In this document: positions 9,101 to 36,332 of the stretch, one piece after another | Position numbering within the stretch: position 1 is the stretch's first letter | Layout of the letters: every line of letters begins with the position of its first letter | DNA from: a virus | Virus record (IMG/VR): IMGVR_UViG_3300050509_000438 | Coordinates: 1-64,000 of that record | Length of the DNA stretch: 64,000 nucleotides | Reading direction: 5' to 3' (one strand) | The notes under the pieces: model-generated | The model's input: the letters and a program-made list of their open reading frames with translations, nothing else | What the model was told of the DNA's origin: nothing | The model's database searches: none | Position numbers and translations under genes: made by a program

Positions 9101-10156
9101 CACCTTGTATTTTAGTTTCTCAAAGTTATCGGTCACCGTATCATAGTACTTGCGCAGCACTGGCGGCATCACAGGAGCCCATTTATGGAAGGAGAGGTGA
9201 AACTCTCTGAAATCAGATCCCAGATCAAAGAACAACTGCGAGATCGTATCAACATCAATAAGCCTTGGATTATTGTTCCGGTCCGTGAGAGCCATCCAGT
9301 TGTCAAGCTTAGCCATCTTGACAAAGTACTTTATACCAAAAGACCAGCCACTCCACTTGAGGATCTCGAATATTTTACCAACAGACTTATCGTAGCAACG
9401 AAGGCAATGATCTCCACCAGAGTTGTACACAGCATAGTAAACTCTCAAGAACTCTTTGTCTTCGTAACGGCCGATCACACGTTCTATCCCTGCAGGCTTT
9501 GTGCCAACCATGAATCCATTGACCCTGAAATAGTCCAGATCGAATACCGATGTAGTGGTGCCGAGCCCTTCCATCCGGACACCAACAGCATTACATCCGG
9601 CCGGTACTGTCACTTGCAGAGCCCCTGTCTCGGCAAGGTTTATGCCGAACTTATTAATACGCTGTGATGATATAACTGTGGTTCCGTTCAGGAATACAAC
9701 AGAAAGGACTACTCCATTGGAGAAGCCCGCCACGAGCGAGCACTTAAATGCTATATTAACTGTAGACTTTGTGGGTGCTACTGCCTGATAAAGTATCTGT
9801 GATGTTACCGGTGAAGTGGTGATGATAGAAATGCGGGCTTTATTGCCAGATGCAATCCACGCAGTCCCTCCGCCGGTTTGCAGCCAGGGGCTCAGTGTTG
9901 CTGTAAAATCAGGATTTTGCACCAGAGAGCCATACACGTTATAGTCTGTCACCTCTACTGTTCCTCGGATGTTCTCGAGATCACCGAAAGAATCGCTGTG
10001 GCTTGATCCGATGCGAGCATTCAGTGCGTAGCGGTAATCGCCAGTCTCAAACGCACTCCTTCCGGCATTGTCCTTCGATGGAGTGACAAGGCTGTCATCC
10101 TGGTTCATTCCGCCAGCCGGAGTCCTTACCTGTTCTCTGTTTCTGACCTCTGCCAT
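6188..10156 (-). CDS. Large tail protein, 1322 aa (nozzle/tubular-B-like or tail spike)
   Basis: Uninterrupted 3.97-kb ORF in the tail module. Start overlaps the stop of the upstream 255-aa gene. Confidence 0.5.
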   Translation of the reverse strand: MAEVRNREQVRTPAGGMNQDDSLVTPSKDNAGRSAFETGDYRYALNARIGSSHSDSFGDLENIRGTVEVTDYNVYGSLVQNPDFTATLSPWLQTGGGTAWIASGNKARISIITTSPVTSQILYQAVAPTKSTVNIAFKCSLVAGFSNGVVLSVVFLNGTTVISSQRINKFGINLAETGALQVTVPAGCNAVGVRMEGLGTTTSVFDLDYFRVNGFMVGTKPAGIERVIGRYEDKEFLRVYYAVYNSGGDHCLRCYDKSVGKIFEILKWSGWSFGIKYFVKMAKLDNWMALTDRNNNPRLIDVDTISQLFFDLGSDFREFHLSFHKWAPVMPPVLRKYYDTVTDNFEKLKYKVYQFSYRYIYKGYLRSCWSPSSVGGNSWKTNNITAIDVYAPGVILDDPGAAVEYNYFNHDNVKFTSAVIGIEYAYRESQLDLWRIFKTVDVQESGNTLVRFSGPSNSTPVATADFNQLFDTVPFLAGTVEAIDNRFVFGDCLDEQEAAQKPILTNIGVVQTRVTTTSDVWNTTDAASFSSLSPGHKTEITARNGISDWSFKSRGLYKAAIQYMHKSGWISAGYTTDEWSYEIPTSQNISETENALTFKFADSFKPPLWAVAYQILRTNCLNIDYFMFGVVNGFIPLIDNPSQVIDTTSLPQNIKDRLRQHFENSRTVNGYELTAEIAKEEGSLSNQVRLFFEEGRKNNVYNTSKLQQYLRSNPLYHKIGPEVRNTQTTNVVSSCSRVLININNWYNSSYKDAGKIQNNPMNNLYYNFREGDRVRFVASTVATPNNSQKQIYDVPILEFTGTSLIIEKPEGVLWLPTNDSYVENQNDYTIEVYSPKIPQEEDYLYYETGEWFSILYPGTDQRDWSKKDWTYTNNAAVTGDTYGDGTVFSKYPFNKGDCSFFNKTIYRNRDDSGLLSVNVRTNSMNQNRNETYAEWERGDGRPNFSYRQLPVVKFKLTQARFGLQIVEESFINNLNRFLDENQFIYPSEYGRIRDLINTANAQVESTGSILLAIGEREAWSIYVNRTTLEDLSGRTQVALSNKVLGSYNTLLGSHGTLNPESISMEHGRIYWWDVLNGVWVRYGRDGLTEISFYKMRNWFRELAALMIDAYQTDDPPMVVSEYDPYNEELVTYIDHADLPATLRGYANYKGSLFSEEDTRWKSCHNYNPERFGKVGIQLVSFKDGSLYLHEQSDTHSTFYGVKYEVQWEPVFNDDLVMKKVWQALGYIATDRWSAERILSEYRGVKMKQETRIKMENFTQKEDNFYSEIPRDANTPNVSTQYVEGQMMRSKAIQVLLQLDPALVTRSLMSYAMAESADSPKNP

Positions 10157-10923
10157 CAGATGTGAGGTGTTAATCTGATCTCTGCACGTGAGATATTGAT
10201 TACGGTCTGTGGATCAAGTGGATTGCGACGAGCACGTACTCTTTTCTCTGCCCAGTATACATCGCGTTCAGCTTGATCGATAGAATTTGCGGTAGCCTTG
10301 GGGTTGTTCTTTTTCTCATAGCGTGCTTCCATAAAGGCGAACACGTATGAGTAAAGATAAGGATGCACGATAGTCTCACCACACGGATCAAAGCCATCAG
10401 TGATGTACTCTACATACACCTGTGACAGGCTGTAGTCGTAATCCAAAAGCAGCTCTTTGCATTCTCCGGCATCGTGTATCTTCCAGTAACCTTTACTCGG
10501 AAGTCCGCCACCAATACCGAATATGCTTGAGCCATTGAAGTTGAAGAAATTATAGCCGTCGTAGTTACCGAAGTTGAGTCCGTTCGGCAGATGCTGTGAT
10601 AGAAGCCCGCGAACTGTCTGGTCTGTGGTTTGACGATTAGTGGTTTTCAGATCATCGTTCAGCCCAAGCGTTAAAACATACTGACCGAAAGGGGCGCCAA
10701 TCTTCGTATAATCCACATAGTCCTGTGGCAGTTTAGCGGTCTTACGATCTGTGACATCAAGCAGTACGGTCTTCACATCAGACCAGGAATCCAACTTGAT
10801 CTCACGCAAGCCCCGACAAGCCCACGCCAGCGCCTTCGGGAAGAAGCCGTCATGCAGATCGTTCTCGATCAGGAACTGATCTACGATCGCGGAGAGCTTG
10901 TTGAAGTCGTTGCTACTTGCCAT
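10156..10923 (-). CDS. Tail-associated structural protein, 255 aa
   Basis: ORF with 1-nt overlaps to both neighbours (translational coupling) in the tail module. Confidence 0.45.
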   Translation of the reverse strand: MASSNDFNKLSAIVDQFLIENDLHDGFFPKALAWACRGLREIKLDSWSDVKTVLLDVTDRKTAKLPQDYVDYTKIGAPFGQYVLTLGLNDDLKTTNRQTTDQTVRGLLSQHLPNGLNFGNYDGYNFFNFNGSSIFGIGGGLPSKGYWKIHDAGECKELLLDYDYSLSQVYVEYITDGFDPCGETIVHPYLYSYVFAFMEARYEKKNNPKATANSIDQAERDVYWAEKRVRARRNPLDPQTVINISRAEIRLTPHI

Positions 10924-11570
10924 TATGCTGCTTGATCTTTATTGTCCCTTACACTATCCGTTGGAGTCATCCGTTTAACAAGAAGCTTCTCAACCACTCG
11001 ATCGATCACATCATCTTCAAAGTCAGAAGGTATCGGGTACCACTGGTCAAGCCCGATCTGTGATGAGTCACGCACTACAAGACGAACTCCGAACTGGGTA
11101 CCGTATTTCTTTCCAACTTCACAGGTGCCAAACGTGAGCCGCATCCCTTTCAGGAACCCGAACAATCTTCCTTGCATATTGCGTGCAGGATTATTCATAA
11201 ACTGTCTGTACTCCATGTGAGACATCACAATCACAGATTGAGTGCTTTCCTCTGTGTACTTTAATGGATAAACACCATCTATACCACGATTCTTCGGCAG
11301 CGCAGCCCAATTACACGGAATGTCCAGGTAGCTGAATACTCCGCCAGCAGGATCAACGACTGTTACCGGTTCGAATGTTGTGATAAACCCTTCATCAATA
11401 CCGGCGCCGGTGAGCTTCCAGTTGGCGAAGTAGTTGTCGGCAGCAAGAGAGTTGACAACCTCATCAAGCATCAAAAACACCTGCCGCTCATCGATCTTCC
11501 AATCAATGTTACGGTGGTCGTTCTGGAGCCTGAACATTACCCGGTCACTATACTGCCTCTTGGTTTTCAT
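10923..11570 (-). CDS. Structural-module protein, 215 aa
   Basis: Coupled ORF in the late operon. Confidence 0.45.
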   Translation of the reverse strand: MKTKRQYSDRVMFRLQNDHRNIDWKIDERQVFLMLDEVVNSLAADNYFANWKLTGAGIDEGFITTFEPVTVVDPAGGVFSYLDIPCNWAALPKNRGIDGVYPLKYTEESTQSVIVMSHMEYRQFMNNPARNMQGRLFGFLKGMRLTFGTCEVGKKYGTQFGVRLVVRDSSQIGLDQWYPIPSDFEDDVIDRVVEKLLVKRMTPTDSVRDNKDQAA

Positions 11571-12235
11571 GTGCCGGTCCGTGTTTTAAGGTTCGCATAC
11601 TCAGTGATCTGTAGCGCAGACAGGTTGATGCCTACATGCGACAGGATCAGCATTACGATCTCGAGGTAACACAGAGCAGGCACGATCAGGTCAACACTTG
11701 TCGCAGGATTGAACACCGGCGCATCGTTGACTGTCGTATATCCCCACACCGGATCAGGCGGCGTCTTAACATAGCTCATGCCGAATGATCCGATAGAGTA
11801 CGGATCGATGAATCCGTAAGGATTCCGCAGCACGCACACCGGGTAATCTTCTGTCGGCGGCGTGATGGTGTTGTGCTTCTGAAAGGTGTACTGATCGGCC
11901 GTAAGCCTGGTGATCGGCCAGAAGTTGTTCTTGTGGATTGCGTCCGGCCAGATGTAACCGTACGGATAGTCGAAGTCACCATTAGGACGAACCAGTATAT
12001 TAATCGGTCCGTACACAAACGGCCGCAGATCTTCATGGATCCTCCATGTGGATTCATATCCGTACTGCGGAACACCAGATTGATTTATGGTCTTGATGTT
12101 CCCGATACGTGTGGACATGAACTCAAGCTGAGCTACCTTGGCCAGGATGTTGAACTGTGAAGGCGTGATGGTGCCACGTTGTTCCTTATTAGAAACAAAG
12201 GACACCAATTCCTGCACAAGCTCAATAGTCATCAT
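11567..12235 (-). CDS. Structural-module protein, 222 aa
   Basis: Coupled ORF (4-nt overlaps) in the late operon. Confidence 0.45.
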   Translation of the reverse strand: MMTIELVQELVSFVSNKEQRGTITPSQFNILAKVAQLEFMSTRIGNIKTINQSGVPQYGYESTWRIHEDLRPFVYGPINILVRPNGDFDYPYGYIWPDAIHKNNFWPITRLTADQYTFQKHNTITPPTEDYPVCVLRNPYGFIDPYSIGSFGMSYVKTPPDPVWGYTTVNDAPVFNPATSVDLIVPALCYLEIVMLILSHVGINLSALQITEYANLKTRTGT

Positions 12236-12714
12236 TTTTTCTTATCGCGTTCGTAAAGTTTCTCAAGAATTGCATCGTCAATCTCTGGAAGAACAAATGG
12301 ACTCAGTACTTCCCACCAGGAAAAGTCAATGTCCTTTGGTAGTAAAGAAAACACACCTTCGCGAATGTCCGGAATGATGTACGGTTCAATATCGATGACT
12401 ACATCCCTCCCAGCATCATCACGGTATGTAGTGAGCTGTAACGCTTTCTTTATCTCTTCATTGCGCTTTTTTTCATTCTCAGCTTTGAATTTATACCGAT
12501 CCTTCTCATCCCTTACGTAAAAGCCGTCTTTCACTTCCGCGTACTTTTGATCGATCTCCGACACAATATCATCCCATGCCTGCTGGATTGGCTTTGTCCT
12601 TGTCATCTCTTTTTCAATAGCCCATAGAAATGGACTATACTTGCCGGCGTAAGGAGTTTTGTAACGCACGGCGTTCTGGCGGAAGGTGAGGACTTTTTCG
12701 AAGGTTGTAATCAT
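12232..12714 (-). CDS. Structural-module protein, 160 aa
   Basis: Coupled ORF in the late operon. Confidence 0.45.
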   Translation of the reverse strand: MITTFEKVLTFRQNAVRYKTPYAGKYSPFLWAIEKEMTRTKPIQQAWDDIVSEIDQKYAEVKDGFYVRDEKDRYKFKAENEKKRNEEIKKALQLTTYRDDAGRDVVIDIEPYIIPDIREGVFSLLPKDIDFSWWEVLSPFVLPEIDDAILEKLYERDKKK

Positions 12715-12717
12715 ACG

Positions 12718-13551
12718 TTATTGTTTTTGGATGGTTGTTTTATAAATGGAACTGTCTGGAAGAACAAAAACAGCAGTTTTATGAATAGTGTCCAGCACTG
12801 CAGGACAATGAATAGGCGGTGGATCTTTTGGTATCAAAGACACGAAGAAATTCCAAACTCGTTTTCCAACCTCGTAGCATTGATCTGCACCATCGCAATC
12901 GTTTATATTGTAGCCCTTGGTGAGCACAGTTCCATGAGAGGCATCGGGGATCACTTTGATGTCGCTCTGCCCCGGATGTACTTTGGTGATCATGGTATTC
13001 ACGGTGTTAGTGGACCACCAACTAACAGATGTGTCCTTTGTTCCAGCAAGCAATAGTACCGGTGCTTTCGTAACTACCGGTGCTTTGAGTTCTGCCTCGG
13101 GGCCATAAGGATAATCTCCAGCCAACGCAACAAATCCAATAAATATACCGGTGTGATCGACCCATATCTGACGGATGGTTTCCTTTCCACCAAGAGAATG
13201 CCCAGTAAGGGCAGCATGGGTAATGCCAAGTTTTTTGAATGTCTCAGACCATCGGCTTGAGATGGGTGTGTAATTATCAAGCCAGGAGGTTGTTCCTTTT
13301 TTTGCTTGTACGATAAGGAGGTTGAATGGTAACGTTTCTTTTTGGGCCAACCTGCCGTAGCCATAAGCGGCAAGCTGATCTTTTGTAAAGCTCGCACCCC
13401 CATGTCCGGGCTGGAAGATCACCCAAAGCTTGTTGCCTGGTGTGATGTACGATACATAATTGAATGGCTCTCCGGTATACGAAGTCATCTGCATTTGACC
13501 GTAGCTGACAATGGTCAGCAGGAGAAGCGATAATATCAGGCGTATTTTCAT
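12718..13551 (-). CDS. Secreted alpha/beta-hydrolase serine esterase, 277 aa
   Basis: N-terminal signal-like MKIRLILSLLLLTIVSYGQ. Nucleophile elbow LTGHSLGG, later GTKDTS and DASHG (Ser-Asp-His candidates). Confidence 0.6.
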   Translation of the reverse strand: MKIRLILSLLLLTIVSYGQMQMTSYTGEPFNYVSYITPGNKLWVIFQPGHGGASFTKDQLAAYGYGRLAQKETLPFNLLIVQAKKGTTSWLDNYTPISSRWSETFKKLGITHAALTGHSLGGKETIRQIWVDHTGIFIGFVALAGDYPYGPEAELKAPVVTKAPVLLLAGTKDTSVSWWSTNTVNTMITKVHPGQSDIKVIPDASHGTVLTKGYNINDCDGADQCYEVGKRVWNFFVSLIPKDPPPIHCPAVLDTIHKTAVFVLPDSSIYKTTIQKQ

Positions 13552-13561
13552 ACTACCAAAT

Positions 13562-15190
13562 TTACAGAGATTTTGTCAGAAGCCACTCATATAAGTTCGG
13601 GTTGTGGAACTCATGGCCTACCCGGTACGCTCGGTCCCAACATCCGCTATGTCCTACACCGGCGTAGATCGTAAAGATCGATTCAGGGTTATTACCGGCG
13701 TTCATGCTGTTGTCGATGGCAACCACAGCCCCTGCAGCGATCATACCGTTAACAGGCCGCGATACACCGGCAAGTGGAGCGGCGGTATCTGCATCGCCAG
13801 CAAATGCCCAAACCTTGATGTCTTTGTTGGCCGCATTGGTTCCCCAAGATGTAGAGGTGCCGCCAGAAGCGCACACCGGCGCAATTGCTGCGAATATGTT
13901 GGGATCGTTCCCGGCGTTAGCTGAAGCCAGCCATGTGCCATATCCACCCATGGAGAGCCCGGTCAGGTATATCCGATCGGGATCGATCCGGTATCCGGAA
14001 GAGTTCTTCACCCAATCGCAGAAAGCCCACGCTTCCGTCCAGAACCAGCTATTGGCCTGGGGCGACAGAACAATGAATTTCTGTCCACCGAACTGCATCT
14101 GGCTACCGTTCTTGATGTGCTTTGGTGGACCATTAGCCGGCACCTTATCCAGGTCACCAGATGTCCCAAGTCCGCGCTCGCCAGCGCCATGCAGGAAGAT
14201 GATGCAGGGGTACGTATCGACAGTCTGTGAGTAATCGTTCGGTAAAAACTGAAGAAATCCGATTGCGGCGCCGGTAGTTCCTGCAGGCTTTTTGACCTGT
14301 ACGCCATCTTCTGTTGCACCATTTGGCTGGAGAGTGACGCTGGTATGGGCCTGTAATCCACCACTGTTGGTGATGTCCTGCGGCAATGTACCAAGGGTGC
14401 CCACTATATCGTACGTACCTGGCGTGGTCTGATTGTAGCTGCCCTGTGCCCATGTTACAGCAATGGATATCACCGATGCATCATCAAGAGTACAGTTGAC
14501 AGTAGAGGGCAGAGATGCCTGCACCGTGGCGAAAGCAGTATTGTAGGCGAAGGTACGCGATGTTTGTGCAGCGATCGCGGTAATATTCCGGTCGTCGCCA
14601 GGCCCGTCAACCACGACGATGTTGATCGCTGCGGTTACAGATCCCGGGTTGGCAACATGGTCTGGTAGCGTGAGTGTACCTGTAATCGGATAGGTAGCCT
14701 CAACATCCGGGTCGTATGATCCTTCATCCCATGTAACTTCCATCGCCACTACAGAGGCATCATCAAGTGTCACATTAACTGTTGACGGCAACGCGATGTC
14801 CTCAAAAGCGGTTGTTACCGGCACGGTGATGTTTGCCTGAGCGGCAACCGAAACAACATCATGCACTTCTTCCTCAACCGTTACAAGGATTGTGGCCAGT
14901 ACTCCAGCAGTATTGGCGGTATCCGGGATAAGCTGGATCACACCTGTTATCGTGTGATCTGTTGGCGAAGCAGCATTATAGTCGTTCTGTTGCCAGAAGA
15001 CATTCAGGTTGGCCGTGCTGGCGTCATCGAAGGTTACTTCAACTGTGGATGGTAATGCCAGATTCTGATAAGGGGTGCCGAATGGAACAGATTGTGGGGT
15101 TTGGTCGGCAACAGTTTCAATTTCCTTCGGTGGTCTTACATCCGGGAATGGGAGTGTTGAGGACGATATGCCGATGTCAATTCCAAACAT
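13562..15190 (-). CDS. Ig-like (Big_4-type) x3 plus C-terminal esterase, 542 aa
   Basis: Three repeats of (A/S)LPSTV.V(T/C)(F/L)DDAS....V.W..G.Y. C-terminal motifs IIFLHGAGERG, LTGLSMGGYGTW, GDADT and GVGHSGCW, typical of the PHB-depolymerase/feruloyl-esterase-like fold. Confidence 0.6.
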   Translation of the reverse strand: MFGIDIGISSSTLPFPDVRPPKEIETVADQTPQSVPFGTPYQNLALPSTVEVTFDDASTANLNVFWQQNDYNAASPTDHTITGVIQLIPDTANTAGVLATILVTVEEEVHDVVSVAAQANITVPVTTAFEDIALPSTVNVTLDDASVVAMEVTWDEGSYDPDVEATYPITGTLTLPDHVANPGSVTAAINIVVVDGPGDDRNITAIAAQTSRTFAYNTAFATVQASLPSTVNCTLDDASVISIAVTWAQGSYNQTTPGTYDIVGTLGTLPQDITNSGGLQAHTSVTLQPNGATEDGVQVKKPAGTTGAAIGFLQFLPNDYSQTVDTYPCIIFLHGAGERGLGTSGDLDKVPANGPPKHIKNGSQMQFGGQKFIVLSPQANSWFWTEAWAFCDWVKNSSGYRIDPDRIYLTGLSMGGYGTWLASANAGNDPNIFAAIAPVCASGGTSTSWGTNAANKDIKVWAFAGDADTAAPLAGVSRPVNGMIAAGAVVAIDNSMNAGNNPESIFTIYAGVGHSGCWDRAYRVGHEFHNPNLYEWLLTKSL

Positions 15191-15195
15191 TTACA

Positions 15196-17229
15196 TTATA
15201 GTAATGGCCCGTGATATAGCGCAAATTTCTGTCCTAATTGTTCACTGCCGGTAGAAGATGGGTGTACCCCATCACCACCACGTTGAACATCTGCAGTCGT
15301 AAATTGTCCACCGTATAAGGTAGCAACTTCTTGCTGTGCTTCGACAATCTGTGGCTTATACAATGGAGCAGAGGCATATGCATAGTCGGTAAGAGCAACA
15401 CATAATTTTGCATCACTGGTATCAAACCCAGCATCCTCTACCTGATCTATCAGGTATTCCCACCATGCGATGAACTGTGACTTGTATGCTGCCTTGACAG
15501 CAGCAGCACCATTGGCATATTCCGGGTTATTGTCCCCCATATCACCAAGCCCCTGCATGAAGCACACTCCTTTGAAATTCACAGTTTTTCCCTGTGCCTC
15601 AAGGACATTAAGTCCCTGAATCAATGTTTGTACAGAAGTTCGCCCAATGCTGTTGTTGGCAACATTAAAGTTCAGGAACATAGATGCTCCTGACAGAGCC
15701 TTCTTCACCAGGAATATTTCATTATTGGCCAACGCGTTCATATCAAACCCGAACTTAAGCTCTGAAGAGAATCCATTCGGAACAGAGCCGCCGTTATTAT
15801 TAGGCCAGTCAAGGTTCTCAAAACCAACTGATGAGTTTATATATATCATGGCTCCTAATGGTCCGACCAGTGATGGAGATGGGCTGGTGGAAGTATTCCC
15901 TCCAATCATTTCGGACTGACCTGTCAACAGATAAACATTTGCTATCCCTGGAGCAGGTGGTAATTCTGAACCTGCATTATAGGTCAATCTTATCAATCCC
16001 TTACCACCATTACCACCGCGTTGATTTGTAGCACTTGTGGTTCTAGCGCCACTCCCTGCCCCTCCGTAATCATTTCCGGCCGCACCAACACCAGATGAGC
16101 CCGCTGCGCCGGAGCCTCCATTTTCAGATGTAGCCGCTCCGCCTGGCGCGGATGTAGAGCCCGATCCAGCAGGAGCATCTCCACCATTGCCAGTGCTGCC
16201 AGCACCACCACCACCAGCCGCCGAACGCGATGATGCCTGAACTGTTGATCCATTACCACCTCTGTATTTTGTAGTGCCATTGCCATCAGCTATAGCCCCA
16301 CCTAAGCCACTGGCTGTTGTAGTTCCCTTCTTCCCTCCTGCGGCTTTTACAACAGACCCATCTTCCCATGAAGTATCCTGGCCGTCAGTTCCATCAACGT
16401 TGGCGCCGCTTGGTACAGGGCACGAAACAGCAGCGGCAACATGGTATGAACTTGAGCCTGAAATCGGTCTTGTCACAGTCCCCAATGAATATCCTCCTCC
16501 TCCTCCTCCCCATCCTCGTGCTGCTGCACCACCAACTCCAGAGCCAGCACCCCCTCCAGCCCAACATTCTACCTGCATTTCATCCACGCCAGCGAGCCAG
16601 TTGTATGTTCCATCACCAGTAACCTCAAGAAGCTCAACAACGATCTGGGGTTGAACTTCAACATCGAGAGCGCCCTGTATAAAAAATGGATTGGTTATAC
16701 CACCCGTCAGAGTGATATCACCAAGAAGAGTCTGCACTCCTGCAGCATTAGGATCATAAGTGCCTTCTAGCCACGTTATAGCCAGTGATTGAACATTCCC
16801 ATTGTTGAGGGTTGCGTTAAGGTTTGATGGTTTAGTTATAGCACTAAACAATGTTCCATAAGATACAGACACTGGAGTGGCCACTTGTATCGAAGCAATG
16901 TACAAAGCAATACTATACGGATCAGAGGTTGCTGATGCGGATCCTTGAGCGTTCGTCGCCGTAACAGTAACACTGATATCAGTATCAACGTCTGTATTCG
17001 TCACAACGTAAGTGATATTGGTAGCAAGAGGAATATCCACTCCGTCTCGTTTCCATTGATAAGTAAAGCTTGTCGGGTTGTTAGCCCACGACCCGTTGCT
17101 TGCGGTTAGCGTTCCGTTAACATCAAAAACGCCTGATATTGTTGGCGCCTGAATATTCGATGGGGGTCCTGCGGAGTTAGGTTGACTTGGGAAAATGCAG
17201 ACTTGCGCGATGATTGTGTATTGCGTCAT
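15196..17229 (-). CDS. Ig-like plus glycine-rich domain plus SASA/SGNH-type O-acetylesterase, 677 aa
   Basis: Gly-rich core VECWAGGGAGSGVGGAAARGWGGGGGGY. C-terminal motifs LLTGQSEMIGG (GQSN-like), CFMQGLGD and GDGVHPS (D..H), as in the sialate O-acetylesterase family. Confidence 0.6.
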   Translation of the reverse strand: MTQYTIIAQVCIFPSQPNSAGPPSNIQAPTISGVFDVNGTLTASNGSWANNPTSFTYQWKRDGVDIPLATNITYVVTNTDVDTDISVTVTATNAQGSASATSDPYSIALYIASIQVATPVSVSYGTLFSAITKPSNLNATLNNGNVQSLAITWLEGTYDPNAAGVQTLLGDITLTGGITNPFFIQGALDVEVQPQIVVELLEVTGDGTYNWLAGVDEMQVECWAGGGAGSGVGGAAARGWGGGGGGYSLGTVTRPISGSSSYHVAAAVSCPVPSGANVDGTDGQDTSWEDGSVVKAAGGKKGTTTASGLGGAIADGNGTTKYRGGNGSTVQASSRSAAGGGGAGSTGNGGDAPAGSGSTSAPGGAATSENGGSGAAGSSGVGAAGNDYGGAGSGARTTSATNQRGGNGGKGLIRLTYNAGSELPPAPGIANVYLLTGQSEMIGGNTSTSPSPSLVGPLGAMIYINSSVGFENLDWPNNNGGSVPNGFSSELKFGFDMNALANNEIFLVKKALSGASMFLNFNVANNSIGRTSVQTLIQGLNVLEAQGKTVNFKGVCFMQGLGDMGDNNPEYANGAAAVKAAYKSQFIAWWEYLIDQVEDAGFDTSDAKLCVALTDYAYASAPLYKPQIVEAQQEVATLYGGQFTTADVQRGGDGVHPSSTGSEQLGQKFALYHGPLL

Positions 17230-17606
17230 AAAATAGCTAGATATTTAATAGTGATGGCGCGCCCATTTCCAATCCTTGTCCAACTTAGTGTAAATCCGTC
17301 TGCGTCTAAAGATGAGATTATAGCCGAATGACCATCACCACCATTAGTTTGCACTTGAATTGACCTTGTGTGACTCTTGGTTGCTCTGGTTAAAAGCGTC
17401 GCCAGAAGATTGAGATTGTTTATAAAATTGCAACCTAAGTTTATGCCATCATCCCATCCATCAGAATATGTGTTTGAATCACCATCATCAATAGCCGAAA
17501 ACAAAACCATGATTGGTTTACCCCCTAGGCCGGTGATTGATTGTGAGCCTGAACCTGTTGCCGCTGCCCGTGTTGTGGACCCTGATATTTTTCTATGTAT
17601 TCCCAT
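17226..17606 (-). CDS. Fibre-module protein, 126 aa
   Basis: Coupled ORF between the fibre and esterase genes. Confidence 0.45.
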   Translation of the reverse strand: MGIHRKISGSTTRAAATGSGSQSITGLGGKPIMVLFSAIDDGDSNTYSDGWDDGINLGCNFINNLNLLATLLTRATKSHTRSIQVQTNGGDGHSAIISSLDADGFTLSWTRIGNGRAITIKYLAIL

Positions 17607-17617
17607 AACGTTAATAT

Positions 17618-20600
17618 TTACCTTATTGCAACATCAAACCAGCGACTACTTGTTGAATCATACTGAATGACCAATGAACCATTCGGAGCAATTGTAAGAT
17701 TCCCACCAGTGGACGAGGTGATCCTGTTTGCCGCTGATGAAGCAGCATCTTCATTGGTCACCACAACATTGTTTGCCCCAACATTCCTGATCACAATTAT
17801 CTTCCCATCAGAACCTCCGGTAAAGCCTGTTATGTTACGGCTGGCATCAGTACTTATACGAAACGAAGTTTGAGTACCAATGGCATAATCGTTCTGGTTA
17901 GACGTGATCTGAGATTTCGTAGTTTGTCTTAACGCAAATCCTCCATTTACATCCAATGTTACATTCGGAGTGGCCGTTGCAAATCCGTTAAGTCCATCAA
18001 TAGGAACGGACAGGAAAGGGTAATGAGTTAGTCCAGTAGTGTTTGTCAGAACCGGATTAATGTATACACCTCTGGCTGTGGTTGTGCCTCCTGTAAGATC
18101 TAAGGTATATCCAACAGTCATCGCATTAATAATAGCTCCTGAATTAGCACTGTTTATAAACCCTGTTCGCAACCTAAGCATGTGACTTTCTGTAGCCGCC
18201 TGTGCAGACATATTCACGTTCACGTTCACAATATCAAACTGGGCCGCTCCTGATGTGACAGTTACTCCTGGTATCTGGAAGTAATGAGTGCCTCCGCGGT
18301 ATATCAGATGCGTGCCAGTAACTCCTACTGTTCCTGTTGTGCCGGGGGCAATGTATGTAGATGAGCCAGTGCCGAATCTTGACTCCCCTCCGTTATCCAC
18401 TCTGAATATGGCCTGGTTGCTGCTATTGGCCACACGTAATCCTACATCTCCCGAACCTGCGTTGATATGCACAACCGTATTGGCTGTGATCGTATCACCA
18501 GAATTCTCAGTGAACAGTACATTGCCAACAATCTTAGGAGTTGTAACTGTGCTGGTACCTGTAACCTGCCATCCAGTACTACTGGTTAAGATGCTGCTAT
18601 CTACATGTGATGAAGTAATCTTTCCCCATGATGGTGCTGTGCTTACGCCACCAGAGATCAGCGCGTTTCCGGTAGCAACTCCAGCAAGTTTTGATAATGC
18701 TGTAGTCGTCGATGCATATAGCAAATCCCCAACAGCATATACAGTTTGTCCAGTACCTCCGTGATCAGCAGCAATTGCAGTACCTGCCCAAGTACCGGTT
18801 GCAATTGTTCCTAAGGTTGTAATAGATGTTTGACCTACATACGTTGCAGCAATATCCAGCGTAATTGATCCAGTACCATTAGTAATTGATAGCCGGTCAG
18901 TAGTTGGCGTAAGCGTTGCTTTTGTCAGGGTATTGCCAGTCGTATTACCAATGAGTAGTTGTCCATTGGTATAAGAAGTGTTACCCGTTCCTCCGTTATC
19001 TACCTCAAGAGTTCCGGTCATCGTTATTGTACCAGTAGAAGTAACAGGACCGCCAACAAATGTCAATCCTGTCGACCCACCGGATACATCTATGGAAGTT
19101 ACCCCGGAGATATTAGACCATACAGTGCCATTGCTGAATTTTACAGTATTGGTCGTAGTATCATAAACAAGCCCTCTCGCATGAGAAGAAGCCGTAGGCA
19201 ATGATACTGTTGCATATCCTGCAAGCACGAATGGAGAGTCCACATAAACCTGATCAGCGGTGAACCTTATCTTACCAGCACCAGCAGTTGTTCCGGATAT
19301 AAAAACACCCTGACTAAGATTTGTTCTCAATAGGATACCACCATCTGAACCAGAATCAGTTGCTGTTACACTGAAGAAATTCAGACGATCAGCACCCCCG
19401 CTATTCTGTCCAAATATAACTCCAAAAGATCCTGCGTTACCACCTATCTCTGTAGTACCGGTAAGCTGACCTCCCCAAATAATATCTGTTACCGGAGTAT
19501 CATCAGCTGCAGATAATCCATTGAATACGTTTATTTTTGCGCGCTGTGTGAGATCAATGCCATTGTTTTGAATTGTTTGATAGAAAGAGGATCCACCAAT
19601 ATCGGCAACAGCAATCCATCTTACAGCATTACCAGAGTCGAGTGCAAGTATCTGTGTAACCGTATTATCTTCAGTGATGTCCAGAAGAAATAGGTTGCTA
19701 AGTCCTGAGAATGTGAAACTGTATGTGCCAGTGTTGCCATCGATGACAGTATCCATGCTCAGCGCGGTGCCGCCGAGGCCGATGAATCCAGGGTTTGTTT
19801 CACTCAACCCATTTTCAGGAACAAGTCCGCCACCACCACTGGTGCCAAGAGAACCAAAGCCAGTCCATGTGGTCGCATCCTGCTTGACAAATGTGGCTGC
19901 GGTGTTCTGGATGGAGATCGTATCGGACACTGAAACAAGAGTAAGTCCTGTGTCAGCGGCAAAGACAAGATTACCGGTTCCCTGCTTGATGAAGATCACT
20001 CCGAACCCAACATCTTCATCGGTAAGTGTAATGTCAACCTGCGCGGCACTGGTGCAATACACTACTTTGTTTCGATAGGTTGAGTCGATCGTAAGTGTCG
20101 TGCCAGCTTCAATCACTATCTCATACGCCGGGAACAGTTCACCGGAAGACAAACTCAATCCATACAGAGCCTGAATTTCTTCAACAGGTCCCGCGGATGC
20201 TGTTGTGCGCGCCAGGATCCGGTTGGTGTTCATCGTCATCGAACTGATGCCGATGGTCCCAAATCCAATGCTTGTTCCTGATCGGCGCAGAATATCTCCA
20301 TCGCTTGCCGCGGTGATCGCAGCAGTTACACCAGATGAGTTTGCTGAACGACCAACCACAGACAACCCAGCAATATCCTGAAACTTAGCATACGTAACCG
20401 CAGCATTTGCGATGGTAGTGGCTACTGTGCCGGTACCTGTCCCGGTCACATCCCCGGTAAGTGTTACCGAGCTTACACCGCCAGATGCCGACAGGGTATG
20501 GGTAGCATGATCATACGACAGATTGGTGCCGATCGTGATAAAAGCGATCGCGTTATCCGTGTCGTCCCATCCCCATAGCCGGTTCGCGCCAGGGTCGCTG

Positions 20601-22501
20601 AGACTGGATCCGGTACCACCATCCGCAAGAGCCACATCTGTTCCTCCAACCCGGTAAATGTATGCCGTACCGATGGTGGTTGAGGTATGGATGTCGAAGG
20701 AAACTGTATTATTGGCGGTCAGTGTTGCCCACGTAACGTAGGCCGTACCGTCCACATCGTAGGCTTGCAGCAACAACGTGTTACCTGCGCTGGTTGATGT
20801 GCGCAACGCGGCACCTGTAGGATAAGTGGTGTTGTTGGAATCATCAAGGATCACTCCTGAATTCTGGATGGAGTCACCAGCGGCAAGGTTCCATCGAACA
20901 ATGGCGTTGTCAGTTGAAGATACCGGGCCGCTCACATTGCCGGGTGAAGGAGGCGTCTGCCATGTCGGGTGTCCAGCGACAACGGTGAGCACCGATCCAT
21001 CTGAACCAGGGCCAACTTGCTGGGCTGTATCGCCGGGTCCACCGATGAAGATCGCGTGATACGTTAAACTGGCGGTAAGCTTACCATTAAGCTGGTCCTG
21101 GATATTCGCATTTGCGTTATCAAGGAAGTTGATCACAGTGGAATCAACAGTAAGTCCGGAAAGCAGGTTGATCTCTGTGGAGGTAGTCGATACATCCGTG
21201 ACATCGGCCAGCACCAGCGTATGCCATTCAGTATTGTAATTGGTACCGTCGATCTTGCGGAGTACCTGATTGGTGCTGCCCCCGACAGGTAATCCATTGG
21301 CTGCGGATGAACCCCACGATACAGATGTGCCATTTGTTGTGATCACCTGGCCCGCGGTACCAACTCCAAGATTGATCCAGTCCGTTCCATTATAAGTAAG
21401 CAGATCACCCTGTGCTACGCCGGTAAGGTTTACAACCAACCTCTCATCAAGAGATGCTTGAATGGAAGATGATACATCCAAGAAACCAAGAGTAGTTGTC
21501 GTGACGCCGCTCGCAACTGGTATACCGTTCGCATCAGAAACAAGAACTCGGTTCGCAATGATCGATGTCGCATCTGTCATGACGCCAAGCGATGAATTAA
21601 TCACAAGGCGATTTGCATTACCGGAAGCGATCTTACTTCTGGCTATCGCAGCAGCAGAATTAATATCAGCATTAACAATGGAATCATTGGTGATCGAGAA
21701 CACACCGGCATTATCGAAAGTGACAACACCGGATGGAGTAACTGCAGTTGCTACATCTGCCAGATTGCCAACAAAGAACTTTCCGTTCTGAAGAGAATTC
21801 GAAAGCCTGTTGTTAAGCTGTATCTGTATGTTGGAGCTAATACCAGCGAGTTGATTGATGTCAACCGCAGCAACACCCGTCACGCCATCCATAATATTCA
21901 GTTCTGCAGCACTCGCCGTCAGATCTGTGATCTTACTTACAGTCAGCGTTGACCACTGTACATTGTATGAAGTGTTATCGATCTTGCTCAGGTATTGACC
22001 TGTGGTACCACCGGACGGGATCCCATTCCCTACGACAGAGCTCCACACAAGACCAGCCGGTGTAGATGTAAGCACCTCGCCTGGATTCCCCATCTCGAGC
22101 GGCAAATAGATGATACCGTTGGATTGCAGTAATGCACCCAATCCGCCCACCGGATAATTACCGGATATAGCCTGATTGAATTCAGTGGTTGTTAACGGGG
22201 TAGGAAGTGTTGACAGGGCATTGAGTCCAGAGGCGTCCCGAATCTGAAGAAGCAACGAATTGGCTACTGATGTATCAATGTTAACAGCTATTATTGCATC
22301 CCCATCATCGTTTAAAACAAGGGCATTGCTGAGTTCGTAGAACAGCGATGCACAATGGATAAGCTGATTTTCAAGAGCAGGCTGCTTAGGGCTGTTGCTA
22401 TTGGCTGCCTCTACCGCTTCAAAACCTATCTCACCGATCCTGGCATAGGCATCGGAATAAATCGTGAAGGCATTTGGTATGAGTTGATACAGGTTTCCCA
22501 T
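17618..22501 (-). CDS. Giant tail fibre, 1627 aa
   Basis: A 4.9-kb ORF rich in G/T/S/N. Internal ~100-aa duplication (P.GG..GQ.L.KID...YN..W.TL). Recurrent GGTG(S/N/Q) fibre-type motifs. Confidence 0.7.
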   Translation of the reverse strand: MGNLYQLIPNAFTIYSDAYARIGEIGFEAVEAANSNSPKQPALENQLIHCASLFYELSNALVLNDDGDAIIAVNIDTSVANSLLLQIRDASGLNALSTLPTPLTTTEFNQAISGNYPVGGLGALLQSNGIIYLPLEMGNPGEVLTSTPAGLVWSSVVGNGIPSGGTTGQYLSKIDNTSYNVQWSTLTVSKITDLTASAAELNIMDGVTGVAAVDINQLAGISSNIQIQLNNRLSNSLQNGKFFVGNLADVATAVTPSGVVTFDNAGVFSITNDSIVNADINSAAAIARSKIASGNANRLVINSSLGVMTDATSIIANRVLVSDANGIPVASGVTTTTLGFLDVSSSIQASLDERLVVNLTGVAQGDLLTYNGTDWINLGVGTAGQVITTNGTSVSWGSSAANGLPVGGSTNQVLRKIDGTNYNTEWHTLVLADVTDVSTTSTEINLLSGLTVDSTVINFLDNANANIQDQLNGKLTASLTYHAIFIGGPGDTAQQVGPGSDGSVLTVVAGHPTWQTPPSPGNVSGPVSSTDNAIVRWNLAAGDSIQNSGVILDDSNNTTYPTGAALRTSTSAGNTLLLQAYDVDGTAYVTWATLTANNTVSFDIHTSTTIGTAYIYRVGGTDVALADGGTGSSLSDPGANRLWGWDDTDNAIAFITIGTNLSYDHATHTLSASGGVSSVTLTGDVTGTGTGTVATTIANAAVTYAKFQDIAGLSVVGRSANSSGVTAAITAASDGDILRRSGTSIGFGTIGISSMTMNTNRILARTTASAGPVEEIQALYGLSLSSGELFPAYEIVIEAGTTLTIDSTYRNKVVYCTSAAQVDITLTDEDVGFGVIFIKQGTGNLVFAADTGLTLVSVSDTISIQNTAATFVKQDATTWTGFGSLGTSGGGGLVPENGLSETNPGFIGLGGTALSMDTVIDGNTGTYSFTFSGLSNLFLLDITEDNTVTQILALDSGNAVRWIAVADIGGSSFYQTIQNNGIDLTQRAKINVFNGLSAADDTPVTDIIWGGQLTGTTEIGGNAGSFGVIFGQNSGGADRLNFFSVTATDSGSDGGILLRTNLSQGVFISGTTAGAGKIRFTADQVYVDSPFVLAGYATVSLPTASSHARGLVYDTTTNTVKFSNGTVWSNISGVTSIDVSGGSTGLTFVGGPVTSTGTITMTGTLEVDNGGTGNTSYTNGQLLIGNTTGNTLTKATLTPTTDRLSITNGTGSITLDIAATYVGQTSITTLGTIATGTWAGTAIAADHGGTGQTVYAVGDLLYASTTTALSKLAGVATGNALISGGVSTAPSWGKITSSHVDSSILTSSTGWQVTGTSTVTTPKIVGNVLFTENSGDTITANTVVHINAGSGDVGLRVANSSNQAIFRVDNGGESRFGTGSSTYIAPGTTGTVGVTGTHLIYRGGTHYFQIPGVTVTSGAAQFDIVNVNVNMSAQAATESHMLRLRTGFINSANSGAIINAMTVGYTLDLTGGTTTARGVYINPVLTNTTGLTHYPFLSVPIDGLNGFATATPNVTLDVNGGFALRQTTKSQITSNQNDYAIGTQTSFRISTDASRNITGFTGGSDGKIIVIRNVGANNVVVTNEDAASSAANRITSSTGGNLTIAPNGSLVIQYDSTSSRWFDVAIR

Positions 22502-27226: not shown

Positions 27227-27291
27227 GCATTACAAAGTTAAGTGAAATATTTGAATACTCGTTTAGACGATTATTTAAGGTATAAAAAAAT

Positions 27292-29949: not shown

Positions 29950-29982
29950 AAGAGAGATCATCACTGATCTCTCTTTTAATTT
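29950..29982 (+). terminator. Plus-strand intrinsic terminator overlapping the TerL stop codon
   Basis: An 11-bp stem AAGAGAGATCA / TGATCTCTCTT with loop TCAC, followed by TTAATTT. On the minus strand it is followed by CCCC, so no U-tract. Confidence 0.55.
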
Positions 29983-33285: not shown

Positions 33286-34104
33286 TCATCCCGCAATTAC
33301 CTTACAAAGCACATCCTCCTTCAAAACCGCAAAATACTCCACTCCCTCCACCTTCACCGGCCAGTTCGCCCCGTAGTTGTAGATGATCTTGTCGCCTACC
33401 TGCAGGTCGCAGAATGGGCTGAAGTGGCGCATGAACGCCTCGAGCGGCTTGTTCTCCGGCTGGGACTTCTTCACTATCCATTCCTCCTTGGGCCGCATGC
33501 GAATAGAGCCATCCGGGTTGGTCAGCGGCTTGCCGTTCACCACTACCGGCGTGGGGATGCTGATGTCCTCCCATGTCTCCACGTTGGGCTCCACAAGGCA
33601 CCAGTCGCCCTGCATGATGATCTCACCATCACGTACCGAGCAGATGATCTCGTTGCAGCCTGCCTTGTACAGCGTGCGCCCGCGGTGCTTGCCGAGCTCG
33701 TTGTCGGGCTCGGTTACCCACTCTCCGAAGTAAACCTTGTCGCCACGCTGAATGTCACACTTGGCGGCGATGTCCGCGATCGTGATGGTCTTGAAGCCTT
33801 CCCATGTTGAGCAGGAATAGTACTCTGCGCTTCTATTGTACCCGGCACGAATCTTGGCTTCAATATGGTCGCCGCCAACATAGGCGCGCGGCGCCGGCAC
33901 CCCGGGATCCACAAGTTCAAGAACCTGGCGCGTGAAATTGATCGGACAGGTTTCCACGAAGCCGTAGATGCGTTTGCGGGCAAAGCGCTCGATCTCTTCG
34001 TCGTTCTGATGGGCGGTGTTCAGGGTCACAATCCCGCTGTTCGTGGTCTTGGACTCGTACTTTTGGTCTACGGAGACGATGAAAAAGTCGTTAATGATTT
34101 GCAT
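33286..34104 (-). CDS. Tandem GroES-like (Cpn10-fold) protein, 272 aa
   Basis: DFFIVSVDQKYESKTTNSGIVTLNTA and VGDKIIYNYGANWPVKVEGVEYFAVLKEDVLCKV resemble the GroES N- and C-terminal signatures. Codon usage matches the phage. Overlapping plus-strand ORFs are GC-driven shadows. Confidence 0.4.
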   Translation of the reverse strand: MQIINDFFIVSVDQKYESKTTNSGIVTLNTAHQNDEEIERFARKRIYGFVETCPINFTRQVLELVDPGVPAPRAYVGGDHIEAKIRAGYNRSAEYYSCSTWEGFKTITIADIAAKCDIQRGDKVYFGEWVTEPDNELGKHRGRTLYKAGCNEIICSVRDGEIIMQGDWCLVEPNVETWEDISIPTPVVVNGKPLTNPDGSIRMRPKEEWIVKKSQPENKPLEAFMRHFSPFCDLQVGDKIIYNYGANWPVKVEGVEYFAVLKEDVLCKVIAG

Positions 34105-35775: not shown

Positions 35776-36147
35776 CTAACTAAACCACACCAGCGCCATC
35801 GACGCTATCATCAGGAATGCCTTTATCCCCAGCAATAGCATTGGATCTACCTTCTTCTGAAGGTTGTCAAGGAAGTTGTCACCCAGAAAGCTCCAATGAG
35901 CCTGGAGCCCATATTTATTGAAGGTGTAGTTGAAGATCAGGTAATGGAGTGAAGTCATTGTTGCCAGCGTCTTCCACCAGAGAATCTCTGGATAGGTGAA
36001 GGCTCCCCATAACATCACTATTGAACGTAACCATGCGCTCAGGATGTGCTTGTCATTCCGCCCCAGCACTCGCGTACGAAAGATTTCAACCCCGAGCTCG
36101 ATCGCGGGAGGTAGAAGTGCAAGGTAGAGTACGTGGAGTAAGATCAT
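35776..36147 (-). CDS. Membrane protein, about 123 aa (start moved to the internal ATG)
   Basis: ATGA overlap with the upstream stop at 36144-36147. Several hydrophobic helices. Confidence 0.5.
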   Translation of the reverse strand: MILLHVLYLALLPPAIELGVEIFRTRVLGRNDKHILSAWLRSIVMLWGAFTYPEILWWKTLATMTSLHYLIFNYTFNKYGLQAHWSFLGDNFLDNLQKKVDPMLLLGIKAFLMIASMALVWFS

Positions 36148-36332
36148 GGCTTCTTTTTTAGGTTGATGATGATTGCGGTCCCTACTAATATAATGAATCC
36201 CAGCGCCCAAGGCCAGAAGTCATGGAAGAAACCTGGCGGCATGTCATATCCGGCGATCTTGAGAATGCCCCAGATCAGCGGTAATGCCAGCAGGACGATC
36301 ATAGCTGCGATTAATGTGCCTTTTGTGTTCAT
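36144..36332 (-). CDS. Small two-TM membrane protein, 62 aa (holin-like topology)
   Basis: Hydrophobic segments LIAAMIVLLALPLIWGIL and WALGFIILVGTAIII with a basic C-terminus. Confidence 0.5.
   Translation of the reverse strand: MNTKGTLIAAMIVLLALPLIWGILKIAGYDMPPGFFHDFWPWALGFIILVGTAIIINLKKKP

Follow-up and report, generated by a model that had tools for sequence, protein, structure and literature searches.

Three esterase genes in a phage tail module

Three neighbouring genes with esterase signatures, here called E3, E2 and E1 in the order of their transcription, are the subject of this report. They are located in a 64,000-nucleotide (nt) stretch of viral DNA, positions 1 to 64,000 of the IMG/VR record IMGVR_UViG_3300050509_000438. 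This stretch is referred to as the window and is most of the genome of an uncultured podophage. The three open reading frames (ORFs) are all on the minus strand and are separated by gaps of 3-10 nt; E2 starts 5 nt after E3 and ends 10 nt before E1. The trio is located between the gene for a long tail fibre of 1627 amino acids (aa) and the ring and muzzle genes of the tail. An earlier note on this DNA, made from the letters without database searches, had described three consecutive esterase genes inside the tail-fibre module, and both the position and the coordinates it gave hold exactly. Transcription on the minus strand proceeds from the terminase large subunit (TerL), the portal and four unassigned proteins to the tail fibre. 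The fibre is followed by a 126 aa ORF, E3, E2, E1, a 160 aa protein, proteins of 222, 215 and 255 aa, and a 1322 aa muzzle protein (Table 1).

The 1322 aa protein matches crAss_MUZ_C above the cutoff (E 9e-9), and the 215 aa protein weakly resembles the crAss ring protein 2 (CrAss_Ring_2, E 0.05). A muzzle C-terminal domain and ring proteins are found here together with a portal/terminase block, as in a crAss-type tail. The podophage is a distant crAss-type phage, a name that refers to its tail genes and is not an assignment to the order Crassvirales. Judged by the portal, the nearest cultured phages are the Cellulophaga phages phi38:1 and phi40:1 and the Flavobacterium "elemo" podophages, with an identity of only 21-23%. 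The placement by portal similarity, the style of the E1 signal peptide and the cellular relatives of E2 together point to a Bacteroidota host.

Table 1. Positions of the three esterases, of their domains and of other genes in the window, with E1-containing blocks of related contigs
Feature	Position	Strand	Basis
E3, 677 aa fibre-type protein: N-terminal Ig-like, Big_4, glycine-rich fibre domain, C-terminal SASA/SGNH esterase	15196..17229	minus	Pfam, PHROG, Foldseek
E3 N-terminal Ig-like domain (residues ~23-110)	16900..17163	minus	identity to L008 protein and P0144; resemblance to 9NCF
E3 glycine-rich fibre domain (residues 206-417)	15979..16614	minus	Pfam Gly_rich_2, Foldseek
E3 SASA (SGNH-clan) esterase domain (residues 431-670)	15220..15939	minus	GQSE 15910-15921, QGLGD 15541-15555, DGVH 15262-15273
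E2, 542 aa: three Big_4 Ig-like repeats and alpha/beta-hydrolase carboxylesterase, no signal peptide	13562..15190	minus	Pfam, PDB matches
E2 Big_4 repeats (residues ~24-109, 112-193, 203-289)	14324..15121	minus	Pfam Big_4, three stretches, E 8e-23
E2 esterase domain (residues 303-541)	13568..14284	minus	GLSMGG 13943-13960, GDADT 13784-13798, GVGHSG 13643-13660
E1, 277 aa alpha/beta-hydrolase esterase, predicted to be exported	12718..13551	minus	homologues, AlphaFold model, Foldseek
E1 signal peptide (residues 1-18), predicted cleavage before Q19-M20	13498..13551	minus	hydropathy, -1/-3 residues
E1 catalytic domain	12835..13497	minus	S119 (GHSLGG 13186-13203), D173 (13027-13044), H206 (12928-12942)
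E1 C-terminal tail (residues 240-277): Pro-rich linker and three short beta-strands	12721..12834	minus	model pLDDT 70-86
Long tail fibre, 1627 aa, upstream slot boundary	17618..22501	minus	PHROG tail fibre family, E 2e-12
126 aa ORF between fibre and E3, variable slot	17226..17606	minus	unrelated small ORFs in relatives
Conserved 160 aa gene, downstream slot boundary	12232..12714	minus	82% identical in L008
Tail ring-like genes (222, 215, 255 aa) and 1322 aa muzzle protein	6188..12235	minus	Pfam and PHROG virion structural families
Portal	27292-29742	minus	PHROG family match
Terminase large subunit (TerL)	29976-32138	minus	PHROG family match
Putative lysis-type membrane genes (62 aa, two transmembrane helices; 123-144 aa, several)	35797..36332	minus	transmembrane prediction, L013 homology
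E1-containing lysis-type blocks of related contigs	L007 9662-12318; L011 6795-8892; L013 7723-10642

E3, a fibre-type protein with a SASA esterase domain

E3 had been read in the earlier note as a protein with an immunoglobulin (Ig)-like domain, a glycine-rich domain and a SASA/SGNH-type esterase, and Pfam matches and motifs agree with each of these. The matches are to Big_4 (E 7e-4), Gly_rich_2 (E 7e-8) and SASA (PF03629, E 7e-8). The SASA match scores 32.8 bits against a gathering cutoff of 24.8 and covers profile positions 3-221 of 226. The motifs GQSE, QGLGD and DGVH occur at residues 437, 559 and 653. G-Q-S, Q-G and D..H are invariant in six homologues, among them a divergent 607 aa protein of the related genome L008 (D234/H237 of the alignment). 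The homologues P0139-P0143 are also assigned to PF03629 in precomputed annotation.

The N-terminal Ig-like domain of E3 shares 42-49% identity with P0144 and with the otherwise different 607 aa protein of L008. It resembles the Ig-like protein 9NCF, and the E3 N-terminus matches virion and tail families of PHROG. In a tblastn search of 50,697 deposited phage genomes, E3 was matched only via this N-terminal Ig segment. The domain is probably a lineage-specific part for attachment to the virion. The whole of E3 is 90% identical to a 675 aa protein of the relative L001. In a Foldseek search, the glycine-rich domain, which is the confidently modelled part of E3, matched the fibre of cyanophage Pam3 (7YPX/7YFW, E 4e-8) and the tail tip of mycobacteriophage Bxb1 (9D93, E 1e-7). 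Since both matches come from solved virions, E3 is regarded as carrying a fibre domain. Moreover, the N-terminus is kept within the lineage while the distal parts vary, and E3 therefore has the layout of a receptor-binding fibre, with an anchor and an exchangeable enzymatic tip.

The SASA assignment also has evidence against it. The domain is poorly modelled, with a predicted local distance difference test score (pLDDT) of 27-47 at residues 440-530 and below 50 at residues 437-516, and a search of PDB sequences with the profile of the E3 SASA domain gave no SASA or SGNH match. The poorly modelled protein gave weak Foldseek matches to SGNH structures, namely the CE2 esterase 4XVH (E 2e-3), 2W9X, the GDSL protein 1Z8H, TesA and NanS (3PT5, E 0.12). 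Because the model of the esterase domain is poor, this fold search is not taken as proof of an SGNH fold.

With these points weighed, E3 is probably a virion-borne deacetylating fibre, with its attachment to the virion and its substrate presumed from the domain layout. It would act as a side fibre whose distal SASA/SGNH O-acetylesterase binds and deacetylates surface polysaccharide during adsorption. One could suppose instead that one or more esterase domains of the trio are catalytically dead and serve as carbohydrate-binding modules. CE2 esterases with an active site that doubles as a binding site are known; one of them, by the title of its entry, is 2W9X, a weak fold match of E3. E3 also has GQSE and QGLGD, as against GQSN and QGE.D in many SASA members. 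However, no family alignment shows any variation at the Ser, Asp and His positions, which makes the loss of catalysis highly improbable.

E2, a carboxylesterase on Ig-like repeats

The earlier note described E2 as three Big_4 repeats joined to a GLSMGG esterase with the further motifs HGAGERG, GDAD and GHSG, and all of these are present. Residues 303-541 are homologous to solved carboxylesterases (4Q82, E 3e-28; Thermotoga EstA 3DOH, E 3e-17; LC-Est1C, E 3e-12). The catalytic motif residues (HG.GE.G, G.S.GG, GD.D and G.H) are invariant in 11 homologues. In NCBIfam, E2 has sub-threshold matches of the polyhydroxybutyrate (PHB)-depolymerase type only. The Big_4 repeats share 30-33% identity with the Big_4 unit of E3.

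The closest cellular relatives of the esterase domain, at 50-55% identity, are secreted multidomain esterases of Cytophagales and Chitinophagales, many of which carry PKD domains and sorting domains of the type IX secretion system (T9SS). They include proteins of Ohtaekwangia, Marivirga and Fulvivirga and PKD/T9SS esterases of Chitinophagaceae. E2 differs from these cellular enzymes in that three Big_4 repeats take the place of the signal peptide, the PKD domain and the sorting domain. A search for the sorting domain PF18962 (Por_Secre_tail), as expected of T9SS cargo, gave no match in E2 at E<=0.1. Among 5.8 billion clusters, the full architecture of E2 is found in only five proteins. E2 had no match in the 50,697 phage genomes (tblastn) and belongs to no PHROG family.

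Most simply, E2 would be a captured host-type polysaccharide esterase placed on Ig-like repeats, which is either virion-borne or released at lysis. Having neither a signal peptide nor a sorting domain, it would stay in the cytoplasm until assembly or lysis. From the kind of its relatives, it would most likely act from outside on an acylated surface or matrix polysaccharide; both this substrate and an attachment to the virion are suppositions.

The choice between the two forms bears on a second explanation, in which E2, and possibly E3, are soluble enzymes that are freed at lysis and loosen the acylated matrix or capsule of neighbouring cells in the manner of free depolymerases. E2 has no recognisable fibre or anchor domain and consists, beside its esterase, of Ig-like repeats and a short unique N-terminus, and its closest cellular relatives are secreted free enzymes. 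On the other hand, its gene is inside a structural operon, and the homologues in the contigs L009 and L010 are also in structural modules. Ig-like repeats are common on the surface proteins of virions, which counts against a soluble E2 as well. For E3, the true fibre domain is the opposing fact. We consider soluble enzymes unlikely.

E1, an alpha/beta hydrolase with a signal peptide

Taken on its own, E1 is the weakest of the three calls, with sub-threshold matches to DLH and S9 families only. S119 in the motif G-H/Y-S-L-G-G (residues 117-122), D173 and H206 are invariant in 17 E1 homologues, and 15 of these 17 family members match families of the alpha/beta-hydrolase clan. In the AlphaFold model (pLDDT 86.6), S119 lies between the strand 112-118 and the helix 120-131, D173 follows the strand 165-170 and H206 follows the strand 196-201. 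This is the canonical Ser-Asp-His topology. Foldseek gave 1140 PDB matches at E<=1e-3. The top match was 4Q82 (E 5e-10, TM-score 0.69 on the target), followed by structures of DLH, S9 peptidase, cutinase/PETase and LYPLA2. The alpha/beta hydrolase with a GHSLGG motif, as E1 was called in the earlier note, is thus confirmed in its fold by structure prediction and Foldseek. In a phmmer search of PDB sequences, the sole match of E1 was a WD40 protein, which was judged spurious. All three proteins of the trio are thus credible as serine esterases.

E1 belongs to a rare family. It had no match in the 50,697 deposited phage genomes (tblastn) and has no PHROG family. When its profile was searched against 1.84 billion representative sequences, 2 matches were obtained at E<=1e-30, 19 at E<=1e-10 and 71 at E<=1e-3. 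None of the 19 comes from a cultured phage or a bacterial genome, and the nearest outgroups are all unnamed metagenomic proteins. No relatives were found in IMG/VR or in the genomes of 185,579 species (GTDB), and a scan of Joint Genome Institute (JGI) metagenomes gave one contig of 2.3 kb. Since E1 relatives were not found in the scanned bacterial genomes, a host could not be named by way of a prophage.

The N-terminus of E1, MKIRLILSLLLLTIVSYG followed by QM, has a positive n-region, a hydrophobic h-region, small residues at -1 and -3 and a Gln at +1. The hydropathy peak over 11 residues is 3.14 in E1, compared with 1.05 in E2 and 1.65 in E3. All 17 family members have a hydrophobic leader that ends in G, A or S and is followed by an invariant Gln-Met. 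The same pattern is seen in the E1-like protein of L009, in the L013 copy and in 9 of 11 distant relatives, while the distant relatives P0207 and P0213 are without an N-terminal signal. Gln at +1 (the Q-rule) is a signature of substrates of Bacteroidota signal peptidase I (PMC5837995), and the rule has also been noted for secreted proteins of Porphyromonas phages (PMC10367356). The signal peptide that the earlier note assigned to E1 is therefore borne out by the hydropathy, the small -1 and -3 residues and the invariant Gln. E1 is very probably exported; the export and the cleavage are predicted from these features. Since E1 carries a Sec signal peptide, it could not be assembled into virions in the cytoplasm.

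A signal anchor of the signal-arrest-release (SAR) type was considered for E1 and is unlikely, as the hydrophobic core has a high content of Leu and Ile and leads into a canonical cleavage motif. The Met that follows the Gln of the cleavage site is likewise invariant. The E1-like protein of L008 (9640-10548) starts at a Met that is internal in the homologue of L009 (9719-10804), so that the 56-residue leader and the signal peptide are missing. This copy is either a non-exported one or the product of a truncated gene.

Some members of the E1 family have the C-terminal tail of about 38 residues and others do not. The tail (…C.ALLDTI..TAIF.LPDS.LYK.TIIKQ) recurs almost unchanged on P0208, P0210, P0212 and P0220, whose catalytic domains are far more diverged. 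By this pattern, it looks like a mobile and strongly constrained module that presumably has a partner. That the tail might be a miniature T9SS sorting signal was rejected because it is too short and has no Por_Secre_tail match. No PF18962 was found at E<=0.1 in E1 or in any of the 17 members, in which a T9SS cargo would be expected to have it.

Two folds in three proteins

The earlier note regarded the three proteins as structurally unrelated, with three different serine-esterase folds. This part of it does not stand, as E1 and the catalytic domain of E2 are remote homologues, which leaves two folds. Comparison of the E1 profile with the profile of the E2 domain (hhalign) gave a probability of 98.2% and an E-value of 5e-14 over 225 columns, with Ser, Asp and His in register. 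The solved structure 4Q82 is the best match of both E1 and the E2 catalytic domain, and the exhaustive search with the E1 profile also brought up relatives of E2. In pairwise BLASTP, E1 and E2 had appeared unrelated (E about 1), a result that is overturned by the profile-profile comparison and the shared best structural neighbour. The trio is composed of one SASA/SGNH enzyme and two members of one alpha/beta-hydrolase group.

A variable slot filled with esterases

The trio is a mosaic in a hypervariable accessory slot that extends from the long tail-fibre gene to the conserved ring and muzzle genes. Related genomes carry different sets of genes between the same boundaries. In L001 and L002, the order is fibre, E3 and E1, without E2 (E1 is 79% and E3 90% identical to the window proteins). 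L005 has the fibre, two small ORFs and E1, and lacks both E3 and E2. In L008, the fibre is followed by a 99 aa ORF, the 607 aa protein, E2 and a 302 aa protein. The E2 of L008 is 93% identical to that of the window in amino acids and 81% in nucleotides. The L008 607 aa protein has only the Ig-like N-terminus of E3 in common with it; it contains the motifs GQSN, QGE and DHVH and has a weak SASA match. The L008 302 aa protein is a divergent E1-type hydrolase (hhalign 98%). The counterparts of the 126 aa ORF are a 99 aa ORF in L008 and ORFs of 125 and 77 aa in L005, and there is none in L001. Downstream, the 160 aa gene has homologues of 147-157 aa in L001, L002 and L005. In a map of DNA breakpoints, every breakpoint is a gene border. 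In all four genome types, all slot genes of at least 200 aa are esterases. An E2-like gene next to an E1-like gene is also found in L009, a myovirus-like contig that is unrelated.

Because each gene is exchanged independently, the three-gene state is one combination among several. We hold this anatomy, and the reading of the trio as a mosaic cassette, with high confidence. The 1627 aa fibre at the upstream boundary is itself mosaic. Its N-terminal part of about 680 aa is 71-75% identical in L001, L005 and L008, and its centre and C-terminus are exchanged in differing combinations.

These data bear on the function proposed in the earlier note, in which all three enzymes form a coordinated battery that strips acyl decorations stepwise from one capsule, lipopolysaccharide (LPS) or exopolysaccharide receptor during adsorption. 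The three genes are tightly packed in one operon beside the tail fibre, L008 also has three esterase-type genes at this place with partly non-orthologous parts, and every large slot gene is an esterase in all four relatives examined. However, the relatives manage with one or two genes, each of which is exchanged independently, and the trio as such is not conserved. E1 and E2 are of the same family and do not represent three different chemistries together with E3. In addition, the Sec signal peptide would take E1 out of the cytoplasm, where virions assemble. The proposal is not supported by these observations, and a joint stepwise action of the three enzymes is very unlikely.

E1 and the lysis genes

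Outside the crAss-type lineage, E1 is found in another neighbourhood. Its gene is immediately beside lysis genes in five unrelated phage backbones (L003, L004, L007, L011 and L013). In L007, L011 and L013, small membrane-protein genes are present on both sides of E1. The order in these three contigs is an SGNH/SASA fibre, a hydrophobic protein of 70-93 aa, E1, a coiled-coil protein of 80-100 aa with one transmembrane (TM) helix, a protein of about 130 aa with several TM helices, and a next gene. This next gene encodes a GH19 endolysin in L011 and an M15 peptidase endolysin in L013. In L007, it encodes a DUF5675 protein whose only PHROG match was a family without an assigned function, and which is not confirmed as an endolysin. 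In L003 and L004, E1 is followed by the same protein with one TM helix and then by a GH19-like or CHAP endolysin. In L006 and L012, a GH108 endolysin is located three genes upstream of E1. As to the small proteins of these blocks, the 70-93 aa protein begins with MSYFKTVSFW…, the 80-100 aa protein ends with VKY(R/Q)K, and PHROG has no family for any of the three.

The gene at the lysin position varies while E1 and the membrane proteins stay, and both flanks of E1 are membrane-protein genes; for these reasons, E1 is hard to explain as merely the last tail gene. Furthermore, E1 keeps 50-79% identity between phages that have unrelated receptor-binding genes (K1-lyase_C, Collar, BNR-like and SASA). 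This conservation points to a shared envelope substrate and away from a receptor that differs between strains.

Several observations speak against a role of E1 in lysis. E1 is not beside lysis genes in the window or in L001, L002, L005 and L008, where it sits among structural genes. In the window, the only recognisable lysis-type membrane genes are about 22 kb from E1. Adjacency to a lysis cassette is normal for receptor-binding genes, and the E2 homologue of L010 directly precedes a CHAP endolysin. One protein of L007 combines a lipobox with a TM helix at the C-terminus and looks like a unimolecular spanin, so that the esterase may not be needed there for disrupting the outer membrane. For the small membrane proteins on either side of E1, no match to a known family of holins or spanins was obtained. 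Finally, the window, L001/L002, L007, L011 and L013 all have an SGNH/SASA fibre together with E1, and E1 could equally well be linked in function to the receptor enzyme.

The search of the window for endolysin, holin and spanin families recognised no endolysin and gave only a multi-TM homologue and an adjacent ORF with two TM helices. The window multi-TM protein (35797-36111) shares 31% identity with its counterpart in the lysis cassette of L013 (E 4e-14). The earlier note had offered, as an alternative to the battery, that the secreted enzyme has a lysis role analogous to LysB. The adjacency to lysis genes in five backbones lends this idea genuine but indirect support, and the distance of about 22 kb in the window speaks against it. 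We regard a contribution of E1 to lysis or egress as possible, at somewhat less than an even chance. In such a role, E1 would be exported to the periplasm and would attack an ester-linked component of the envelope late in infection, aiding breakdown and release.

A serious rival is that E1 acts in the periplasm as a receptor-destroying or receptor-masking enzyme. It would deacylate nascent polysaccharide, leading to superinfection exclusion and sparing progeny from loss to debris. In favour of this, E1 always directly follows receptor-binding genes and frequently co-occurs with the SGNH/SASA fibre. Moreover, E1 and the virion-type E2 come from one family, and the window, L008 and L009 each carry an E2-like gene paired with an E1-like one, as though a single chemistry were applied from outside and from inside. 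However, a receptor-specific enzyme should co-vary with the receptor-binding proteins, and E1 keeps its identity across unrelated ones. In L007, L011 and L013, a membrane-protein gene separates E1 from the fibre, and E1 is inside the lysis block. Expression from a late operon would also be late for exclusion. This explanation is rather improbable in our judgement, although it is to be taken seriously.

Taking the three proteins together, we lean towards a reading with two virion-borne, receptor-modifying esterases and one exported envelope esterase that probably aids lysis. A further step would be to regard E1 as an undescribed class of lysis or egress protein of Gram-negative Bacteroidota phages, which enters the periplasm without a holin and is an enzymatic counterpart of spanin, disruptin and LysB. 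We consider such a class doubtful. It would be recognised by the Q-rule signal peptide, by an alpha/beta-hydrolase domain reduced to the minimum and, in some members, by the conserved C-terminal tail; in the crAss-type lineage, its gene would have moved into the tail-fibre slot.

Comparison with known systems

SGNH-type deacetylating fibres and spikes are known from Pectobacterium phage Possum, Acinetobacter phage Aristophanes and receptor-binding enzymes of Klebsiella prophages (PMC9569702, PMC8471582, PMC13123978). E3 is similar to these in having an SGNH-clan esterase at the end of a fibre encoded in the tail module, with a presumed function in polysaccharide recognition and deacetylation. 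It differs from them in that its enzyme is of the SASA (PF03629) branch and is joined to Ig-like, Big_4 and glycine-rich domains, on the backbone of a crAss-type Bacteroidota podophage.

The E2 domain is a clear homologue, and E1 a remote homologue, of a group of esterases that includes 4Q82 (Haliangium), 3DOH, LC-Est1 and the Bacteroidota PKD-T9SS esterases; HG.GE.G, G.S.GG, GD.D and G.H are common to them. Unlike the cellular enzymes, E1 keeps only a signal peptide and a catalytic domain, to which a short tail is added.

LysB is a mycolyl-arabinogalactan esterase of mycobacteriophages (PMC5707550, PMC6116114). Both LysB and E1 are serine esterases of the alpha/beta-hydrolase kind whose genes belong to lysis cassettes, in the case of E1 in several Bacteroidota phages; the ester bond cut by LysB is in the outer layer of a diderm-like envelope. 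Unlike LysB, E1 has its own Sec signal peptide, its host is of a Gram-negative phylum without mycolic acids, and the E1 of the window is outside the lysis region. Among the PDB and viral fold matches listed for E1, there is no LysB; they include only generic alpha/beta hydrolases and actinophage "esterases" with a TM-score of about 0.5. Whatever its function, E1 is not a member of the LysB family.

In multi-depolymerase loci, such as those of Klebsiella and Acinetobacter phages with several tailspikes and of CBA120-type phages, enzyme genes are arranged side by side next to tail genes, and modules are exchanged between relatives. The slot of the window is different in that all modules are esterases and not glycosidases or lyases, and one of them is exported, as predicted, and not virion-borne.

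The "disruptin" gp28 of phage phiKT is a cationic peptide that disrupts the outer membrane in spanin-less phages, and about 15% of phages of Gram-negative hosts are without spanins (bioRxiv 10.1101/515445). If the lysis reading of E1 is true, E1 would be similar to disruptin in breaching the outer membrane without a spanin; it differs in being an enzyme. Neither multi-esterase cassettes in crAss-type tails nor exported esterases in lysis cassettes of Gram-negative phages were found described in the literature, whose coverage was incomplete, so that their absence is unproven in both cases.

Other features of the phage and of related contigs

Further genes of the window lie outside the esterase locus. 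A 272 aa protein (33286-34104, minus strand) has a C-terminal Cpn10/GroES domain (Pfam E 8e-7) and may be a phage co-chaperonin fused to an uncharacterised N-terminal region. A PfkB-family carbohydrate kinase (37683-38600, minus strand, Pfam E 6e-13) may be an auxiliary metabolic gene, or a gene for nucleotide-sugar metabolism or DNA modification. A DUF3799 (PDDEXK-like) nuclease and RecT are encoded at 39911-40525 and 43193-44146, both on the minus strand. They suggest a recombination module, which would fit the heavy mosaicism at the tail locus. The early region on the plus strand encodes a 653 aa Prim-Pol-type primase/polymerase (50463-52424) and a 166 aa protein with a TrAA12-like match (58593-59093, E 3e-8). 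The DNA between 50 and 52 kb is GC-rich (0.54) compared with the neighbouring DNA. The strongest AT skew of the window (-0.318) is at 26001-28000, over a gene for a 431 aa protein (25931-27226, minus strand) without a family match. On the E1-homologue contig L003, positions 15094-20026 encode PTPS, GTP cyclohydrolase I and a radical SAM/SPASM protein, a set that is typical of 7-deazaguanine DNA modification.

Significance

Since esterase-bearing tail fibres are already known, the trio in the form in which it was first described is a moderate curiosity. It extends known kinds, namely esterase receptor-binding proteins and multi-enzyme variable loci, and adds one uncharacterised exported esterase family. 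The second idea of the earlier note, a lysis role for the secreted enzyme, is the most interesting lead; comparison with other phages favours it indirectly, and it is unproven. E1 represents a rare, uncharacterised family of exported esterases whose gene is inside the lysis cassette in several phages. How Bacteroidota phages breach the outer membrane is poorly understood, and E1 is a concrete candidate for that step.

The locus also presents one host-derived esterase scaffold in two opposite packages, tethered to Ig-like repeats without a signal peptide in E2 and provided with a Sec signal for export in E1. In the crAss-type lineage, the slot is a recombination hot spot; all of its large genes encode esterases, and they are exchanged independently of one another. 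Such an all-esterase slot is a natural system for studying how Bacteroidota phages retarget acylated surface polysaccharides.

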